A stretch of 64,000 nt of DNA, taken from NCBI GenBank assembly GCA_035527535.1, contig DATLAK010000084.1, forward strand, positions 9,413 through 73,412. Reading direction: 5' to 3'. Shown here in pieces: positions 2,855-35,980 of the stretch (its first letter is position 1; every line of letters begins with the position of its first letter). Source of the stretch: Armatimonadota bacterium (GTDB lineage Bacteria > Armatimonadota > Hebobacteria > GCA-020354555 > CP070648). The notes beneath the pieces were generated by a model. The model saw only the letters and a program-made list of their open reading frames with translations. It had not been told where the DNA came from and made no database searches. The position numbers and the translations under genes are program-made.

Positions 2855-3737
2855 CATAGGATATCAACTGGATCTGGACGGGGCGCCGACGGCCGACCAG
2901 GTGGTAAACGTCGCGTCGGTTCCGCAGCGCAGTCCCTTCCGCTATCCGGGCGGAAAGACCTGGCTGATTCCGCGCGTCCGTCAATGGCTGCGTTCTCTCC
3001 CGAAGCGGCCCTCCGTGTTGGTGGAGCCATTCGCGGGCGGCGCGATTGTTGGCCTTACGGTAGCCTTTGAGCGCTTGGCCGAAAAGGTCGTTCTGGTCGA
3101 GCTTGATGAGCAGGTCGCCGCCGTCTGGAAGACTATCCTCAGCGACGACTGCGAGTGGTTAGTCGGCCGCGTGTTGTCCTTCACCCCGACCTTGGAGAAT
3201 GTGCGCGCGGAGCTTGCGAACACAGACCCGACCACGCCGGCGCTGGCCTTCCGAACCCTAGTCAAGAACCGCACCTATCACGGCGGCATTATCGCGCCCG
3301 GTAGCAGGCCTATGAAGAACGGCGAAAACGGGCGGGGATTGAAGTCCCGATGGTATCCCAGAACGCTAGCTGGACGGATACGGGCGATAGCGAGCATCCG
3401 CGACCGCATCACTTTCACCGAGGGCGATGGCATTGCGGTCATCCGCACCTACGCGCGCCGAAAGACCGCGGTGTTCTTCGTAGACCCCCCGTACACGGCG
3501 GCCGGCAAGAGGGCCGGCATGCGGCTCTACACGCATCACGTCCTCGACCATGAGAGGTTATTTGCGACCACGGCGCGCGTCGCGGGCGACTTCCTGATGA
3601 CCTATGACAACGCGGAAGACGTCGCGGCGCTCGCGGTAGCGCACGGCATGCAGACCCGGACGATTGCGATGAAGAACACCCACCATGCGCAGATGACCGA
3701 ATTGCTTGTCGGGCGCGACTTGAGCTGGTTGCGCTAG
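2847..3737 (+). CDS. DNA N6-adenine methyltransferase (D12/Dam-like, alpha class)
   Basis: Motif I EPFAGGAIVG precedes motif IV FFVDPPY. N-terminal FRYPGGK. Translationally coupled to the upstream REase. Confidence 0.8.
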   Translation: MTSIGYQLDLDGAPTADQVVNVASVPQRSPFRYPGGKTWLIPRVRQWLRSLPKRPSVLVEPFAGGAIVGLTVAFERLAEKVVLVELDEQVAAVWKTILSDDCEWLVGRVLSFTPTLENVRAELANTDPTTPALAFRTLVKNRTYHGGIIAPGSRPMKNGENGRGLKSRWYPRTLAGRIRAIASIRDRITFTEGDGIAVIRTYARRKTAVFFVDPPYTAAGKRAGMRLYTHHVLDHERLFATTARVAGDFLMTYDNAEDVAALAVAHGMQTRTIAMKNTHHAQMTELLVGRDLSWLR

Positions 3738-3833
3738 AACACTCCGCTTGATCGCCGTCCCACCAAGAACACCACCACCCTTCCAGGCTCACTCGTTGGC
3801 TGTGCGCTTCGCGTTGACAATGCATGATCCGGG

Positions 3834-5787: not shown

Positions 5788-5844
5788 GCAGCCGTCTCGG
5801 CTGCCAACCCGTCGAGGATGCCAGGCGGGACGCCTGGCCTACCG
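5788..5844. repeat. REP-C double hairpin GGCAGCCGTCTCGGCTGCC ... CCAGGCGGGACGCCTGGCCTACCG
   Basis: Intergenic, between the two URO-D genes. Shares CCTGGCCTACCG with the copy at 15347-15370. Confidence 0.6.
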
Positions 5845-5912
5845 TGTCTTTGTGCGGCTAGGCCAGGGGCCGCCGTGGCGGTCAGCATTGCTGACCTAGC
5901 CACCTTGGTGGT

Positions 5913-7067
5913 TCAACTGCCGCCGTACTTCGGTGCCAGCCGGTGGAACTCATCCAGCAGCGCCATGAAGTTATCGTACTTCGTGCCGTAGGCGATGGAC
6001 TGGCTGGGGCCGAGGATGAACCCCGGCGTGCGGGCGCCGCGCTCCAGTGCCTGCCGCACGTCGCGGCGGATGTCATCGGGCGTGCCCGCGATCAAGTCCT
6101 CCACCGGCACCCCGCCCCACAGGCACAGGCGGTCGCCGAAGTCGCGCTTCAGCCCGCCGATCTCCATATCCGGGATGTCCTGCAGCGACTGGTAGCACTG
6201 CACGCCCGCCTCGATGAACATCGGGATCAGCGGGCGGTTATCGCCGCAGCTATGCAGCACCACCTGGTAGCCCAGCGCGCGCGCGCGTCGCACCCGCTCG
6301 CGCATCGCCTCGAAGCAGAACTCGCGGAACATCCGCGGCGAGATGAACGGCCCCTTGGTCGTTCCGAAGTCTTGCTGGAAGAACACCCCGTCCTGGCCGG
6401 GGCGAAGCATGTACTCGTCGGCCGCGTTCTGGCGCGCGACCGCCTGCCCGGTCGCCGCGCGCACCACCTCGGGATGGAGCGCGTATTCCAGCAGCCCGCG
6501 CTCCCATCCGCCCAAGAGCACCATCGCGGCAAACCCGCCCGAGTCGCCGAGGATGTAGCGGTCGCCCCCCAGGTGCTCGATCACATGGTCCACCGCCTCG
6601 AAGATGGTGGGGTCGGGCGGCTGCACCTCGACCGGCCCCGTGAACTGCTCGACGGTGTAGGCAGTCGCTTCGACCGTCGGATCCTCGACGCAGGCGATGT
6701 TGTTCGTCTCCAGCGACGCCTTCCACACGCGCCCCTTGCGGTCGCGCCACGTGTTGTCGGCGATCTGCTTCGGCGGGTCCTCGGGCGCCCACCCGCGCGG
6801 CGGCACGATCGGCGCCTCCTTGAAGGCGATGACGTCGGCCACCTCGAGCTTGCGGTAGAACTCGACGGTATCACGCTGGTAGCTATCCACCACCTCGTCG
6901 CGCCGGCCCTGCCACAGCGCGAGCTGGGCCTTGATCTTGTTGCGCACATAGGTCTCGCGCCCGATCACGCGCTCGATGGTGTCGCAGTCCACGACGTAGA
7001 AGCCCAATGGCACGCGATCCACCGGCTCCCGGTTGATCGCGGCGCGCACTCGTTCCTTGCCGTTCAT
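5913..7067 (-). CDS. URO-D/MtaA family protein (paralog)
   Basis: Same fold: REPVDRVPLGFY, LHSCGDNRPLIPMFIEAGVQCYQSLQ, LWGGVP. Start at MNGKERV. Confidence 0.7.
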   Translation of the reverse strand: MNGKERVRAAINREPVDRVPLGFYVVDCDTIERVIGRETYVRNKIKAQLALWQGRRDEVVDSYQRDTVEFYRKLEVADVIAFKEAPIVPPRGWAPEDPPKQIADNTWRDRKGRVWKASLETNNIACVEDPTVEATAYTVEQFTGPVEVQPPDPTIFEAVDHVIEHLGGDRYILGDSGGFAAMVLLGGWERGLLEYALHPEVVRAATGQAVARQNAADEYMLRPGQDGVFFQQDFGTTKGPFISPRMFREFCFEAMRERVRRARALGYQVVLHSCGDNRPLIPMFIEAGVQCYQSLQDIPDMEIGGLKRDFGDRLCLWGGVPVEDLIAGTPDDIRRDVRQALERGARTPGFILGPSQSIAYGTKYDNFMALLDEFHRLAPKYGGS

Positions 7068-7102
7068 GGGGCCATCTCCATTCGCGCCCGCGCGTCCGGT
7101 TC

Positions 7103-9853
7103 TCACTCGCGCAGCGGCTCGCCCTGGCTGATGATGGTGACGTAAGCGCGTGCGCTCGCGGTCTGGTCGGCCCGTGCGTCGCAGGTGAAAGCGACCTGGT
7201 TGTCGCCGGCGGCAAGCTCCGGCGCTTCTCCCTCGGGCTGCACCTCGGCAATCAGCTTGCCCTGGGGATCATAGAGCCTGCAATCCGACATGGAGCGAAA
7301 CTCGAGGTAGCAGCCGGTTTCGATCTCGCACGGGAAGACGACGGTCTTGCCGCCGATGGTCACCGCCGGGTTGCGCAACTTGATCTCGACCAGCGGCAGC
7401 GCCCGGATGGGGCTCAGGCGGCAGTCCACCTGTCCCCCCGGCGGGAGGTTGTTGTACCATAGGCCGAGCGATGCCACCTGGCGGTAGTCCACGAACTCGC
7501 GGTAAATCGAGTGCAGATCGCCGTAGGGCCAGTGATAGTCCTCGAAGCGCGCGCCCTCCGGCTCGATCATCTCGAAGTAGCGCCAGCCGGTGAAGTCCAC
7601 AATGACGTAATGGTCGCCGATGCCGGCGACAACGTGCTCCGGGCTGCGGAGCTGAAAGTTGAGCACTTCCCCCTGCCCGTCGCCGTGAACCCAAACGCCG
7701 AGCGCCTGGCGCTCACCGAGGTCGAGCGGGGTCGGGAACACCTTGGTCATCCCCGCCCACGTTGCGGTGGGCTGCTGCAGTTCGCTGGTGGCGGTGTAGC
7801 GGCCGCTGACGGGGCCCGCCTTCACCTCGGCCGCGTCGGGGCGCAGATCCGCACGCACACCGGCCTGGGCGACGCGATCGGCGAAGTCGCGGTCGTCCGC
7901 GAAATCCGCCAGCGTCAAGTTGTCGGCCGCGTCGTACGGGCCCGCCGACAGCAGCGCCTCGATCCGCAACTGCGCGGGCTGGCCACCAAACTTGCTGCAC
8001 GTGGTCCAGACGTTGCTCCAGCCGTCGCTGCCCTGCACTTTGTGCTTCGCATATTGCACCGGCCGGAAGAACCACTTGCCGTCTGCGGCTTGCTCCAGCG
8101 TGAACTCGCCGCCAGGCGCCCTCAGCTTCGCCTTGACCGACTCCGGGAAGTAGTTGGCGTGCCGTAGATCCTCGTACCGCTTGAAGACGGCCGCCAGCCG
8201 CGCGAAGGCCGGCACTTGCGCTATGCTGTCGGGGTCCACCCCCATCAGCGAGAGGCCGGTATCGGTGGCCAGGGCCTTGCCGCACAGGTACTCGATGTCG
8301 TCCGTGAAGGTGGGCTCCCCCTCGGCGCCCGACCAGGTATTCACCGCCCACCATCCCAGGTGGCCAGGCATCAACATCCGCAGATTGCCCTGGTTGACAG
8401 CAACGTGGAGGTCTATGAATCGCTTGTGACTGCGCCGGGGGTGATCCCAGGCACCCAAGCGCGAGCGCACATACCACAGGTGATGGTGGAATGTGCTCAT
8501 CTCCATGAGCGCGGGGCGCTGCAGGTGCTTCCATATCTCGAACACGAACCTAGAGCTGTAGTGCCAGTAGTTCTCGGCCCCGCCGAGGATGTCTCCGCCG
8601 TCCAGCGCATCGAGGTAGATCATGTCGAAGCCGCACTCGTTGAAGGCCTGCGCGGTCCTTTCCGCCACCTCGCCCAACAGCGTGGAATCGGCATCGGGCA
8701 CGAACAGGCCGAAGCACTCCTTCAGGTGATGCACCTTCGCCCCCGGGGCATGGGGAGCGGGCCGCGTGCCGCAGGCGCCGCGCTCGCAGCCGGTGAAGCC
8801 GTAGGGCGGATCCTGGGCTACACCGGCATAGGTGATCAGCTCGTCGTCTATCTGCAGGGTGGCGCTGTTGCGCACGTAGAAGCCGGTGACCGCGGACATG
8901 CCTTCGGTCTCCTCCATCACCGCCACCGCGGTGTCGTCGGCGCCCAGCGCCGCGGCCAAGGTCAGGCACGCATCCTTGGCGAGCCGCGGATCCGGCGACG
9001 GCGCCACCCACGGGCAGCGCTTGTCAATGAAGAAAGCGTAGGTATGCAGGCCGGCCTTGATGCCGGCGGCGTGCAGCCGGTCAATCACCGCCTTGAGGCT
9101 GGCGAAGCCGCGCGGGTAGGTTTCCGGATTGGGCAGGCAGTCCCCAAACCGGAAGGAAGCGCCGCCGTGGAAGTCTATCTGGTTGAAGCCAAGCGCCTGC
9201 ACTAGCCTGATCCAGTCATCCGCGGTCTGCTCCGACAGGTTGGCGAGGTTGAACAGGTATGACCCGCGGTTGATCTCGGCGTCGAGCGCCCACGGCCCGC
9301 CGATGGAGGAATGCGGCAGCTCCGGCGCCGCGCTCACGACTTCTTGCATCACCTGCCGCAGCTCGCCCTGGGGGCAAGCGATGAGCGCGACCTTGGCGCC
9401 GGCGAAGCCGAAGCGGGGATAGCACGCCGCCCACAGGTGCTTGCTCGGTCCCGGCAGCCCGGACACATTGGTCTGCAGGTTGAGGGCGAGCGCGCAGCAG
9501 GCGAACTCCTCCTCCAGCGTCCCCTCAAGCGTGAGACCGATGTTGGCGAACACGAGCTCCTCCACCCCTTCGCCCGCGACCGACAGGACTTCCAGGGTAA
9601 AGTAGCGCCCCTGCTCGACTGCCGCGAGCACGACCTCGACTCCCGCATCGCCGAACTGCGCCGTGATGCGCCCGTCCCGAAACGAGACCGCTGACGCGCC
9701 GTGATACCGGCCCGCCTGCTTGACTTGAGCGAACGGGAGCCGTGGCTCCCGGACGCAGTAGTCCATGCCCGTGCGCCGGTCAATCAGGTGTGAGTTCTCG
9801 CCGTTGGGGCCGATCTCGTAGCTGGCGCATTGGTTCTCGATTCCCATGGTCAT
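7103..9853 (-). CDS. large (916 aa) hypothetical protein, TIM-barrel glycoside-hydrolase-like
   Basis: Long GC3-rich ORF. Segment GFNQIDFHGG...AGIKAGLHTY is typical of (beta/alpha)8 glycosidases. No exact family assigned. Confidence 0.55.
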   Translation of the reverse strand: MTMGIENQCASYEIGPNGENSHLIDRRTGMDYCVREPRLPFAQVKQAGRYHGASAVSFRDGRITAQFGDAGVEVVLAAVEQGRYFTLEVLSVAGEGVEELVFANIGLTLEGTLEEEFACCALALNLQTNVSGLPGPSKHLWAACYPRFGFAGAKVALIACPQGELRQVMQEVVSAAPELPHSSIGGPWALDAEINRGSYLFNLANLSEQTADDWIRLVQALGFNQIDFHGGASFRFGDCLPNPETYPRGFASLKAVIDRLHAAGIKAGLHTYAFFIDKRCPWVAPSPDPRLAKDACLTLAAALGADDTAVAVMEETEGMSAVTGFYVRNSATLQIDDELITYAGVAQDPPYGFTGCERGACGTRPAPHAPGAKVHHLKECFGLFVPDADSTLLGEVAERTAQAFNECGFDMIYLDALDGGDILGGAENYWHYSSRFVFEIWKHLQRPALMEMSTFHHHLWYVRSRLGAWDHPRRSHKRFIDLHVAVNQGNLRMLMPGHLGWWAVNTWSGAEGEPTFTDDIEYLCGKALATDTGLSLMGVDPDSIAQVPAFARLAAVFKRYEDLRHANYFPESVKAKLRAPGGEFTLEQAADGKWFFRPVQYAKHKVQGSDGWSNVWTTCSKFGGQPAQLRIEALLSAGPYDAADNLTLADFADDRDFADRVAQAGVRADLRPDAAEVKAGPVSGRYTATSELQQPTATWAGMTKVFPTPLDLGERQALGVWVHGDGQGEVLNFQLRSPEHVVAGIGDHYVIVDFTGWRYFEMIEPEGARFEDYHWPYGDLHSIYREFVDYRQVASLGLWYNNLPPGGQVDCRLSPIRALPLVEIKLRNPAVTIGGKTVVFPCEIETGCYLEFRSMSDCRLYDPQGKLIAEVQPEGEAPELAAGDNQVAFTCDARADQTASARAYVTIISQGEPLRE

Positions 9854-28358: not shown

Positions 28359-28433
28359 GGGCGGTTAGTTCAGTAGGAGAACATCTGCTTGACACGCAGA
28401 AGGTCGTAGGTGCGATTCCTACACCGCCCACCA
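28359..28433 (+). tRNA. tRNA-Val (anticodon GAC)
   Basis: Cloverleaf folded by hand: acceptor GGGCGGT/ACCGCCC, anticodon loop TTGACAC, T-arm GTAGG-TGCGATT-CCTAC, 3' CCA encoded. Confidence 0.85.
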
Positions 28434-32402: not shown

Positions 32403-34448
32403 CTACTTCGCTTGCACGAATTCGGCCTGGCCGTCGGCGTAGCCGTAGAGGCGGCCGCCGGGGCGCAGGCCGGGCACGCTCGGGCTGGGCGGCTCGCCAG
32501 CGGCGTTGCGCGTGTCCGAGCTGAACTCGTAAAGAACGACCATGTTTGCCGGGTCGGCGATGTCGGAGAGGTTCAGGCCACTCACTGCGACATTCATTGC
32601 GTAGCTGTACTTATGCTTCTCCCCTGCGCAGCGCAGCACATCTTCGCTCCGGAGGTACGGCTTGATATCGTCCATCCAGGTAGCTGCATTAGGTAAGCGC
32701 CCGTCGTGATCTTTGGCGAACATGCGCAAAGCGAGCATGAGTTGCTGAGCGTTCCTAACCCATGCCTTCAGGGCACCCTGCGCGATTGGATGTGCCCTGC
32801 CGCTCCCGACGGTATAGTGCGTCTTGTGTATCTCATCGTTCACTTCGGTCCCCGGCTTGAAGTGAAGCTCGAGGTCCTTGGGCGAAAGCTTCGTGTTCGC
32901 ATCGAAAGACAGAACGCGCATTTCCCCTATGGTTGTGCTCCCGTCGTCGTTCTTCGTGTGCATCGTCATCCGCGTCGGCAGCCAGGCATGGCCTGCCTTC
33001 TTCACCTCCTTCACTCTCTGCTCACCGTGCACCGCGCCACCTACGCGAAAGCTGACAATCCTCGGGATGAAGCCGTGGACATCATCAATCCAGTAGTACA
33101 CCTGGTGTCCCTTCGCCCAATCCAAGAGGAATCCGAATCCCTTGACCCCGAATTGCGTCTCGGGGCGCGCCCACCGTGCGTGTCCCGACTCAGCCTGCGA
33201 CTGCAACTCCCGCCAGTGCACAAGGTTAGGACCAGTCCCGCGGATCACCGAAAGAGGGTTGCCCAATTGGAACCCTCTCCAGTCCATGGCGGTTCCAGTC
33301 GCATGGAGTACCTTGCCGGTGAGCAAGTCTTCGCCTGACGGCTGCTTCATCTCTTCGGCCTGATGTATCTCCCGACCGTCGGTCCATACGCTCATGCGCG
33401 GCATGACGGATTCGGGCGACATCGTGGATTCGAGGTCCTCGAAGTAGACAGTGCTTGGCGCCACATACTTCATAAGGAACTTCTTGCGCATGGTCTGTTG
33501 GGGCGCCTCCTGCGTGTATTCCACCTCAGCAGCAAGATGGCGTATGGCTTCGTAGTTTCGCTGCATGCCTGCCGCCCTTATCGCTGCTTCATGCTTGACA
33601 TTTATGCGGCCACCCGAGCGCGGGTGCGCTGGCGGCGATGCACCATGGTCTCCGACCAACCGCGGCACGCCAACCACCGCTCCGCCCACTACTGCCAAAC
33701 CAAGCGCGACGTAAATCCCCTTGACCATCAGTCCAGCCTCCTTCCATAGGGTCCAGACACCGTGCAACAAGCCGACAGTCGCTGGAGCCGCGTGGCCGAT
33801 GCTGTGAGCGATAGCCGGCGCCAGGCTCGGCGGCGCAGCCCCTTGCCCTTGCAGCGCGGTGACGAGGCCCGTAGCGGGCGGCGCCTGTCCCCCGGCGATG
33901 ATCGCCAGCCCGGCGGCCTCGCTCGGCAGCGCTCGGCGCAGGGATTCCAGCGCGCGCCGCAGTCGAGTCGAGACCGTGCCCACTGGCGCGCGGGTAATGC
34001 TCGCGATCTCGCGGTAGCTCAGCCCCTGATCGTAGTAGAGCGATACCGCCTCGCGCTGCTCCGGGCGCAGCCGCGCCACCGCCGCGAGCACCTGCTCATG
34101 CTCCAGCCGCGCCATGGCCTGCTCGGCGACCGGCGTACCCCCGGCCGGTTGCTGTTCGTCGAGCGGCTGCTCGGCAAGGTGGGCCTTGCGCGCCCTTTCC
34201 CGCCAGAGGTTGGTGGCGATGGCGAAGAGGAAGGGGCCGACCGGCCGGGCGCGGTTGAAGCGTGGCAACGCGCGGTAGAACCGGATAAAGGCCTCCTGGC
34301 AGAGGTCTTCGGCTTCCTCGTGGCGGCCGGCAAGGCGCAGGAGATGGCGATACAGCCCATCCTGGTAGCGGCGCACTATGTCGTCGAAGGCACTGCGGTC
34401 GCCGTCAAAGGTGCGCCTTATCAGTTCGCGATCATCGGTCATGTCCAT
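32403..34448 (-). CDS. ECF (sigma-70 family) sigma factor fused in-frame to a TM helix and a large C-terminal domain with an H-X9-DG-like (DUF1559-like) tail
   Basis: Region 2 EDLCQEAFIRFYRALPRF. Region 4 LSYREIASITRAPVGTVSTRLRRALESL. TM GIYVALGLAVVGGAVVGV. C-terminus GGRLYGYADGQAEFV. Single 681-aa ORF. Confidence 0.6.
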   Translation of the reverse strand: MDMTDDRELIRRTFDGDRSAFDDIVRRYQDGLYRHLLRLAGRHEEAEDLCQEAFIRFYRALPRFNRARPVGPFLFAIATNLWRERARKAHLAEQPLDEQQPAGGTPVAEQAMARLEHEQVLAAVARLRPEQREAVSLYYDQGLSYREIASITRAPVGTVSTRLRRALESLRRALPSEAAGLAIIAGGQAPPATGLVTALQGQGAAPPSLAPAIAHSIGHAAPATVGLLHGVWTLWKEAGLMVKGIYVALGLAVVGGAVVGVPRLVGDHGASPPAHPRSGGRINVKHEAAIRAAGMQRNYEAIRHLAAEVEYTQEAPQQTMRKKFLMKYVAPSTVYFEDLESTMSPESVMPRMSVWTDGREIHQAEEMKQPSGEDLLTGKVLHATGTAMDWRGFQLGNPLSVIRGTGPNLVHWRELQSQAESGHARWARPETQFGVKGFGFLLDWAKGHQVYYWIDDVHGFIPRIVSFRVGGAVHGEQRVKEVKKAGHAWLPTRMTMHTKNDDGSTTIGEMRVLSFDANTKLSPKDLELHFKPGTEVNDEIHKTHYTVGSGRAHPIAQGALKAWVRNAQQLMLALRMFAKDHDGRLPNAATWMDDIKPYLRSEDVLRCAGEKHKYSYAMNVAVSGLNLSDIADPANMVVLYEFSSDTRNAAGEPPSPSVPGLRPGGRLYGYADGQAEFVQAK

Positions 34449-34624
34449 CGGCGTTCGTCGGTGTCAGTCGGCGGTTCCAATGGTAGTATGCATTTCGGCG
34501 ATGGCTTGTTTCACCCGGCGGAGAGAAACTATGGCCGAAGATGGCGCGCAGATGCGGTAGGGGATTCCCCTCGGCGGGCTCGGGGCAGGCTCTCGGTCGT
34601 GCGGTCCCCCTCGGAATGACATTC

Positions 34625-35575
34625 TCAGATCTGCGATCCCAGTGCGCCCGGCCGCGCGCGGGCGGCTTCCTGCAGGGCCGCGGAGATCCACTGCGCCAGG
34701 CCCTGGGAGCGACGCGTGCGGCGCGTATCGTAGAAGGCGCGCGCGAGCAGGCGCAGCGCCGGCGCGCCAATCCTGCGCTCGATGCGGTCGAAGGGCACCG
34801 CTTCGCCCTCGTGCTCGATCACGTCGGCCAGGATGCACAGCGCCTCCTCGGCGGCGTCGCGCGGGCTCAGATAGCCGATGCGCAGGCTCCGGCCCAGCGC
34901 CTGCAGCAGCGGCTTGATCTCCTCGCGTTCCCACAGTTCCGCCGGTCCCACCAGCGCGTGCAAGGTCGCGTGGGCGACGGCGCCGGCCAGGCGCTCCGGC
35001 CGCTCCAGATAGGCGGCGCCGAGCACGACCGAGAGCCCGAACCGGTTGACCGTGAAGACTCGCAACAGGTGATAGTGGAAGGTGGCGCGGCCGGGGCGGT
35101 ACTCGACGCCGAGGGCGTCCTGGTGGCGGACGAGGATGCGCGCGAGATCGAAGGTGCGCAGGGCGTCGGCCAGGCGGCCGTCGAGGTCGAGGCGGATGCC
35201 GGTCCAGCGCTCGAGGAAGTCGTTGAGCTGCATGCGCCCGAAGCGCTGGAGGGTGTTGCGCGCCTGGGGGCGCGCGCGCAGGTCGGGCATGGCGGCGAGC
35301 GCGTCGGCGGCGGAGTCGGGGCAGGTGCGCGCAACCGCCTGCAGCCACGGCCGCCACAGCGGCTCGATGTGCAGGGGTTCGAGCTGACCGGCGTCGGCGA
35401 CCTCGAAGCGCCGCGCGAAGTCGGCGAAGGGGTCGTCGTCCGGCACGGGCCACAGCGCTGGTCGGGTGAGGGCGGGCAGGCGCAGTTGCGCCCGGCCGAG
35501 CAGGTAGAAACAAAAGTTCAGCCCCTGCCCGACGACGTGGCGCAGGCGGAAATCCAATCGCTCGTCGGACATCAT
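34625..35575 (-). CDS. hypothetical protein
   Basis: GC3-rich 316-aa ORF. Preferred over the overlapping Arg-rich 443-aa frame. Confidence 0.45.
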   Translation of the reverse strand: MMSDERLDFRLRHVVGQGLNFCFYLLGRAQLRLPALTRPALWPVPDDDPFADFARRFEVADAGQLEPLHIEPLWRPWLQAVARTCPDSAADALAAMPDLRARPQARNTLQRFGRMQLNDFLERWTGIRLDLDGRLADALRTFDLARILVRHQDALGVEYRPGRATFHYHLLRVFTVNRFGLSVVLGAAYLERPERLAGAVAHATLHALVGPAELWEREEIKPLLQALGRSLRIGYLSPRDAAEEALCILADVIEHEGEAVPFDRIERRIGAPALRLLARAFYDTRRTRRSQGLAQWISAALQEAARARPGALGSQI

Positions 35576-35865: not shown

Positions 35866-35895
35866 TGGACACGCGGCGCGTGGTTGTGCTAGAAT
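35866..35895 (+). promoter_or_regulatory. tRNA-Gln promoter TGGACA-N18-TGcTAGAAT
   Basis: Extended -10 ending 10 nt before the tRNA 5' end. Confidence 0.45.
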
Positions 35896-35905
35896 CCAGC
35901 GGCGG

Positions 35906-35980
35906 TGGCGGGTGGCGCAACGGTAGCGCGAAGGACTTTGGATCCTTAGGTTGCAGGTTCGAATCCTGCCCCGCCAGCCA
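35906..35980 (+). tRNA. tRNA-Gln (anticodon TTG)
   Basis: Hand-folded cloverleaf. U1:A72 acceptor pair typical of bacterial tRNA-Gln. Anticodon loop CTTTGGA, T-loop TTCGAAT, CCA encoded. Confidence 0.8.

Follow-up and report, generated by a model that had tools for sequence, protein, structure and literature searches.

An ECF sigma factor fused to a transmembrane helix and an exchangeable two-module ectodomain in Armatimonadota

We analyzed a stretch of 64,000 nucleotides (nt) from an Armatimonadota bacterium (contig DATLAK010000084.1, positions 9,413 to 73,412), hereafter the window, focusing on an open reading frame (ORF) of 681 amino acids (aa) at positions 32403-34448 of the minus strand, whose existence was confirmed by the ORF listing. 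The encoded protein comprises an extracytoplasmic function (ECF) sigma factor core (aa 1-177), a linker (aa 178-242), a single transmembrane (TM) helix (aa 243-265) and a 416-aa ectodomain, the latter consisting of a weakly LolA-like module (module 1) and a pilin-like module (module 2). Our results confirm that this fusion is a real single gene and not the product of a frameshift, and that its ectodomain is an input cassette exchanged between close relatives on a conserved cytoplasmic chassis. By analogy with characterized systems we favor, with moderate confidence, a one-component transmembrane ECF sigma factor with LolA-like and pilin-head sensors on the outside, which would be freed by regulated proteolysis and would control its own gene.

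A real single-frame fusion with an exchangeable ectodomain

The preliminary description of this DNA had placed an ECF sigma factor, a TM helix and an extracytoplasmic-looking domain in one ORF, a layout borne out by the ORF itself, by Pfam and NCBIfam models and by hydropathy. The sigma core (33918..34448; all features of the gene lie on the minus strand) includes sigma2 (aa 24-89, 34182-34379), matched over the same residues by Pfam Sigma70_r2 (PF04542) with 59.4 bits, and sigma4 (aa 118-171, 33936-34097), matched at aa 118-170 by Sigma70_r4_2 (PF08281) with 53 bits, and the NCBIfam model TIGR02937 (sigma70-ECF) scored 91.9 bits over a cut-off of 42.9. Domain scans returned neither sigma1 nor sigma3 in the protein, and its sigma part belongs to the ECF (group 4) sigma-70 family. 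None of the NCBIfam equivalog models reached its own cut-off for the sigma (the top one, PRK12513, scored 111.9 bits against 206). In a PDB sequence search, the closest solved structure to the core was Bacillus subtilis SigW (5wuq, E 4e-21), and the top matches were ECF sigma factors throughout. Sigma factors nearest to the family from outside share only ~36% identity with it, and no close family member was found among the GTDB species representatives, which yielded sigma-only matches of 34-36% identity and one 37-residue fragment. In every homologue the protein starts at the position that matches the second ATG (34442; MT[DE]D...), and therefore the true start is probably located there rather than at 34448.

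The possibility that a frameshift or assembly error had merged a sigma gene with an anti-sigma or membrane-protein gene downstream of it, raised already in the preliminary description, could draw on two observations: genes for standalone proteins formed by a TM helix and module 1 (P0036 and P0180) begin exactly at the equivalent of Met241, and an AAGGAGG lies ahead of this codon. Against it, the ORF contains neither a stop nor a frame change, and an identical 681-aa ORF was assembled in several samples, on at least 8 contigs, the three places shown representing three ENA samples with the same neighbors; NCBI also lists an identical protein, from an Armatimonadota metagenome-assembled genome, as a sigma-70 family protein. 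Moreover, in ~15 homologues recovered from different metagenomes (37-64% identity), sigma4, linker and TM helix are read without a change of frame (14 of these relatives, of 418-657 aa, carry sigma, linker and TM in a single frame), the C-terminal module is also present on P0002 (64% overall identity) and P0003 (50%), and the same layout occurs in two unrelated sigma lineages. Because of the repeated assembly and the in-frame relatives, we regard the fusion as real and an artefact as effectively refuted, with hardly any probability left to it.

Conservation along the protein is markedly uneven. Among 15 family members, the mean pairwise identity amounts to 0.69 in sigma2, 0.75 in sigma4, 0.57 in the linker and 0.69 in the TM helix, the last being as high as in the sigma domains, whereas the ectodomains reach ~0.2. 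Since linker and TM helix are about as conserved as the sigma domains, these values imply that the transducing half of the protein is constrained and the input half is free. The Ala/Gly/Pro-rich linker (33723..33917), predicted to be cytoplasmic, has invariant residues at G180, L181, L199, G201, A205, P206 and A212, and contains no Cys and no zinc finger. The Gly-rich TM helix (KGIYVALGLAVVGGAVVGVPRLV, 33654..33722) was the one hydrophobic segment found by the hydropathy scan of the protein (aa ~243-265).

Exchange of the ectodomain was observed at a locus (L004, encoding P0002) syntenic with the window, with which it shares the upstream 316-aa ORF, the sigma gene, a convergent DUF1638 gene and the threonyl-tRNA synthetase (ThrRS) gene. 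The flanking DNA of both loci is 82-96% identical, yet no similarity remains over the segment encoding aa ~266-572, and hhalign gave the two middle domains a probability of 0.25%; for this reason we conclude that the ectodomain has been exchanged as a cassette. Thus, the window carries module 1 followed by an HX9DG module, and L004 a DUF4412-like domain followed by HX9DG; at the same syntenic position, the ectodomain of L013 (452 aa) is of a third type unrelated to these, and L019 holds only an 88-aa sigma remnant (2992-3258) that abuts DUF1638 and retains the promoter. The window-type middle domain was found again in L012, with 63% identity. The swapped segment has a lower GC content, both overall and at third codon positions (GC3); low GC was considered as evidence of recent transfer and rejected, as an equal GC offset separates the standalone homologues from the genomes in which they lie.

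P0009 and P0011 lie in tandem on one contig (JGI 3300075153, genes 5795-7228 and 7377-8801), which indicates that the chassis was duplicated locally, with a different ectodomain on each copy. A degenerate member (L016, ~3001-3780) has a frame that stops right after the linker, ahead of the TM helix.

Met241, located directly ahead of the TM helix, is nearly invariant, and in the DNA its ATG is preceded by AAGGAGG and an 8-nt spacer (33726..33743; AAGGAGGCTGGACTGATG). This element is a possible internal ribosome-binding site and translation start; alternatively, the conserved K-E-A codons alone may account for it. The equivalent residue is the first one of three standalone homologues (P0036, P0038 and P0180); P0036 is encoded at L024 4001-4942 and P0180 at L025 4001-4963, the latter within the complete Armatimonadota chromosome CP070648.1. 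The TM helices of P0036 and P0180 are closely similar to those of the sigma family (e.g., KTIYVAIGLAVVGGATFGVPGLVG), and this resemblance suggests that genes were split or joined at the TM boundary. We also considered a 27-aa "linker remnant" that precedes P0180, but set it aside as too weak.

Two ectodomain modules and their other carriers

The preliminary description had treated the segment following the TM helix as a single domain of ~420 aa; the frame does run on for 416 aa, but this ectodomain splits into the two modules. Module 1 (aa 266-555, 32784..33653) belongs to a family without a Pfam model, with standalone homologues of ~300 aa (P0036, 59-60% identity; P0180, 54%; P0037, 46-48%) and more distant ones. 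Its only recurrent Pfam signal was LolA_like (22.7 bits versus a threshold of 30), obtained in 4 of 10 members and always below the threshold, so that a LolA-like beta-barrel fold, which would span aa ~281-550, is plausible rather than established. PDB sequence searches with either module gave no matches, and Foldseek found no significant match to the ectodomain model in the PDB.

Module 2 (aa 556-681, 32406..32783) terminates in ...RPGGRLYGYADGQAEFVQAK, where the DG of the H-X9-DG motif is kept and Arg instead of His stands ten residues before it (R-X9-DG). The C-terminus of the query gave no direct match to Pfam or NCBIfam models, even at E<=10, nor did it reach the curated thresholds of the DUF1559 and H-X9-DG models (PF07596 and TIGR04294). 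Homologous intermediates were informative. A profile of the three sigma-fused copies of module 2 led to small standalone membrane-anchored proteins, some of them with a literal H-X9-DG (e.g., RHEGGNNYAYADG in P0029), and an exhaustive phmmer search with the whole ectodomain retrieved 2,378 cluster representatives at E<=0.001; most among the best 150 of these align to aa ~560-681, with E-values down to 1e-43. When 112 close homologues of module 2 (E 1e-14 to 1e-43 to the query) were compared with both models, 40 matched PF07596 (best 4.9e-14) and 31 matched TIGR04294 (best 6.2e-12). The consensus of the homologues reads C..NL.QL.LA...YA.DHD..LP ... PY......F.CP ... YA.N..LSG ... TVL.FES ... RH.GGN.....DGH. 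In 140 aligned copies the position of the motif His is occupied by H (83), Y (23) or R (17), with a nearly invariant DG, and as Arg occurs in 17 of the 140, the alignment indicates that it is a recurrent variant.

A single-sequence AlphaFold2 (AF2) model of the whole protein was uninformative, with a predicted local distance difference test score (pLDDT) of 35; the AF2 model of module 2, in turn, was confident and displays a pilin/pseudopilin fold of the type IV pilin kind, in which a long alpha-helix packs on an antiparallel beta-sheet and which is structurally similar to solved pilins. Because the intermediates match PF07596 and TIGR04294 and the predicted fold is pilin-like, we assign module 2 by remote homology as a divergent, prepilin-less, globular "pilin-head" member of the DUF1559/H-X9-DG superfamily. 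The resemblance noted in the preliminary description therefore holds through intermediates and fold, although the His is an Arg, and the module belongs to a large prepilin-less branch: a prepilin leader ([GAS]F[TS]L[IVLM]E within the first 60 aa) was found in 0 of 136 carriers of this branch. Instead, these proteins have a signal peptide or a TM anchor, and the module is present in one to five copies.

DUF1559/H-X9-DG prepilin-type proteins of Planctomycetes, Verrucomicrobia and Lentisphaerae share with module 2 the pilin/pseudopilin fold and the blocks C..NL.QL.LA..MYA.DHD..LP, PY....F.CP, YA.N..LSG, TVL.FE and H.GG.....DG; unlike them, module 2 has no prepilin leader and no hydrophobic alpha1-N helix, and it is fused behind other domains. 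A pilin head lacking leader and alpha1-N helix should not assemble into a fiber. The first of the two conserved Cys of the HX9DG family (C..NL... and F.CP; aa 565 and 606) is a Trp in the query, so the presumed pilin-type disulfide cannot form there; the ortholog P0002 retains both. No bona fide prepilin or H-X9-DG gene was available as a comparator in the 64-kb window.

Both modules are also found on other proteins. HX9DG modules follow one TM helix on two unrelated ECF sigma factors, P0103 (two copies) and P0113 (RHDGTYGYAFADGH), and occur on three BlaR1/M56 proteins as well as on thioredoxin, DUF3352 and zinc-ribbon proteins; a homologue of module 1, P0066, is joined to a BlaR1/M56 peptidase (M56 E 4e-45). 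The recurrence of both module types as the extracytoplasmic part of BlaR1/M56 sensor-proteases (P0066, P0077, P0099 and P0143), together with that on the two unrelated ECF sigma factors, supports a sensor role for the ectodomain modules. BlaR1/MecR1 proteins (Peptidase_M56) thus display the same two extracytoplasmic modules on another transmembrane signalling chassis, but they signal through a metalloprotease domain directed at a repressor, and not through a fused sigma factor.

A conserved promoter motif upstream of the sigma genes

The preliminary description had proposed to look upstream of the gene for a conserved promoter motif, as expected from ECF autoregulation, and such a motif was found. 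In the window, an ECF-type promoter-like motif at 34479..34516 of the minus strand comprises TGAAAC (34513-34508), a 17-nt spacer and CATACT (34490-34485), and leaves 36 nt to the annotated ATG and 42 nt to the second one downstream. The pattern tGAAAC-N17-C(G/A)TA(C/T)T lies upstream in 12 of 12 family loci with invariant spacing, at a distance from the ATG of 14 to 149 nt. A position weight matrix (PWM) returned this site as the single one in the window, with a score of 29.2 versus a maximum of 15.1 in 20 shuffles; the matrix was built including the window site, so this score is partly circular, which does not apply to the conservation of the motif.

The sigW-type promoter class is defined by TGAAAC/CGTA (PMC5758882); the family motif shares its -35 element and has a similar -10, C(G/A)TA. 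With this sigW-like motif conserved upstream and SigW as the nearest solved sigma factor, autoregulation of the gene from the TGAAAC-N17 motif fits the data, without being proved. A regulon scan with the PWM over the window and 22 loci recovered only the own promoters of the sigma genes and one weak match in L021. A GGAAC-N16-CGAA beside the ATG was evaluated as an alternative ECF promoter and dropped, being conserved in no other locus, and scanning the surroundings of the gene for sigma-70 promoters and terminators gave no useful information. In L004 (128 nt, ~1016-1137) and L014 (149 nt, ~782-924), a long leader separates the promoter from the start codon; these leaders hold repeats of the form TGGAGCAC.GGCGCC...CCCGT, which may represent a small insertion of repeated sequence or a hairpin with a regulatory role.

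Proposed mode of activation and known systems

SigW is set free when its single-pass anti-sigma factor RsiW undergoes regulated intramembrane proteolysis. Our protein resembles this system in its closest solved sigma factor, the TGAAAC -35 and a similar -10, but SigW-RsiW consists of two proteins, whereas here the membrane part is fused to the sigma factor and lacks an RsiW-type anti-sigma. Fusions of this kind have precedents. The preliminary description had stated that sigma/anti-sigma-like fusions exist in some ECF groups, as IutY and ECF48/ECF52/ECF53 confirm, and had called the present combination unusual; the domain combination is indeed new, although the principle of fusing a sigma factor to a TM segment is known. 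IutY of Pseudomonas putida, an ECF243 hybrid, likewise has a cytosolic ECF sigma, one TM and a periplasmic C-terminal domain in one polypeptide, and sequential proteolysis by Prc and RseP frees its sigma domain (PMC5411451; PMC8999054). However, IutY is a proteobacterial FecI/FecR-type protein of 374 aa that receives its signal from a TonB-dependent receptor, in contrast to the Armatimonadota protein, with its SigW-like sigma and LolA-like plus HX9DG ectodomain, no FecR domain and no receptor gene nearby. The actinobacterial ECF48/ECF52/ECF53 fusions (e.g., SCO4117), for which proteolytic activation has been proposed (PMC8999054), share a long C-terminal extension, which in their case contains TM helices and an extracytoplasmic binding domain, but they carry a zinc-finger (ZAS-like) anti-sigma before the TM, and SCO4117 a Pro-rich region and a carbohydrate-binding domain in addition; the 681-aa protein has no linker Cys or zinc finger, and other ectodomains. 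Hence, of the features of hybrid ECF factors it displays a sigma core, a TM and an extracytoplasmic domain in one polypeptide, and lacks a recognizable anti-sigma domain. What is new is the domain combination, the lack of an anti-sigma domain and the occurrence in Armatimonadota, the fusion of a sigma factor to a transmembrane sensor being known.

Under the mechanism that we favor, the sigma core would lie in the cytoplasm, connected by the ~65-aa linker and one membrane helix to two sensor modules outside, and the intact protein would hold the sigma factor at the membrane in an inactive or poorly active state. An envelope or extracellular cue perceived by the ectodomain would lead to site-1 trimming, followed by intramembrane (site-2) cleavage inside the Gly-rich helix, which would free sigma and linker. 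The freed sigma factor would then associate with RNA polymerase and transcribe from TGAAAC-N17-C(G/A)TA promoters, including its own, and therefore positive feedback is proposed; the ectodomain would act as an exchangeable input module, the cytoplasmic half being kept as the sensor is swapped between close relatives. We base this proposal on the architecture, the conserved Gly-rich TM, the sensor-type ectodomains and the conserved promoter, and on the precedents of IutY (Prc, then RseP) and of the mechanism proposed for ECF48/52/53 (PMC5411451; PMC8999054; PMC7826278).

Several points weigh against the proteolytic proposal. The linker holds no recognizable anti-sigma domain that would keep the tethered sigma factor inactive (the extension gave no Pfam match to a FecR-type or zinc-finger/ZAS domain at E<=1, and linker plus TM none to PDB sequences at E<=10). 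A crude motif scan of the window found no site-2 protease candidate, and the fold assignment of module 1 is weak. Furthermore, the motif defines no regulon, because the 64-kb window and ~112 kb of related loci (~225 kb over both strands) yielded no second copy of it, and the promoter may be read by another sigma factor.

In a different explanation, the linker itself (aa 178-242) would be a fused minimal anti-sigma that folds back on sigma2/sigma4, as in a true sigma/anti-sigma hybrid, and its removal or displacement, not just detachment from the membrane, would activate the protein. Its family-wide identity of 57% with several invariant residues, a similar Ala/Gly/Leu-rich segment after sigma4 in the independent fusions P0103 and P0113, and the accepted model of fused anti-sigma-like extensions in ECF48/52/53 (PMC8999054) speak for it; nevertheless, the segment is of low complexity, has no zinc-binding motif and no Pfam anti-sigma or PDB match, and the sole model covering it is uninformative (pLDDT 35). 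Classical anti-sigma domains have ~80-90 aa, and at ~65 aa the linker is shorter; taken together, we find this explanation rather unlikely. Still less probable in our view is a sigma factor active while tethered, without proteolysis, like the membrane-bound activators of the ToxR/CadC type, in which a signal on the ectodomain would shift the conformation or oligomeric state of linker and TM and the sigma factor would recruit RNA polymerase to DNA at the membrane. A sigma factor has to join a large holoenzyme and clear the promoter, no such tethered sigma is documented in the reviews consulted, the characterized hybrids are activated by truncation or proteolysis, and the ToxS/VtrC matches that would recall these activators sit on a low-confidence part of the model.

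An equally doubtful proposal, as a whole, extends the observed swapping to a modular sigma-linker-TM chassis with ectodomain cassettes (LolA-like, DUF4412, pilin-head HX9DG and others) recombined at the TM-coding boundary and exchanged even between orthologues, together with a second product started at Met241. The conserved internal AAGGAGG-N8-ATG could drive a sigma-less TM-ectodomain protein; by competition for signal or protease, this product might adjust how the full-length sigma factor is released. If this proposal is true, the pilin-head HX9DG would be a general envelope ligand sensor, and the first functional handle on DUF1559.

No simpler route can connect an external signal with RNA polymerase than an ECF sigma factor fused to its own transmembrane sensor, and few such fusions have been studied (IutY, SCO4117); the present family adds a case without a recognizable anti-sigma domain in a barely studied phylum, and shows clearly that sensor modules are swapped in nature on a conserved chassis. 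It also links the very large DUF1559/H-X9-DG family, of unknown function, to signal sensing, as three sigma lineages and BlaR1-type sensor-proteases carry the module. The conserved promoter offers a direct activity assay, and the compact design is possibly useful for engineering orthogonal sensors.

Regarding the surroundings of the gene, the 316-aa ORF (34625-35575, minus strand) lies 176 nt upstream of the sigma gene on the same strand and has no Pfam match; it is 95% identical in the syntenic L004 and missing from the remaining family loci. Two tRNA genes stand on either side of the region on the plus strand, tRNA-Val(GAC) at 28359-28433 and tRNA-Gln(TTG) at 35906-35980, the latter directly preceded by a sigma-70-like promoter match, TGGACA-18-TAGAAT (35866-35895).

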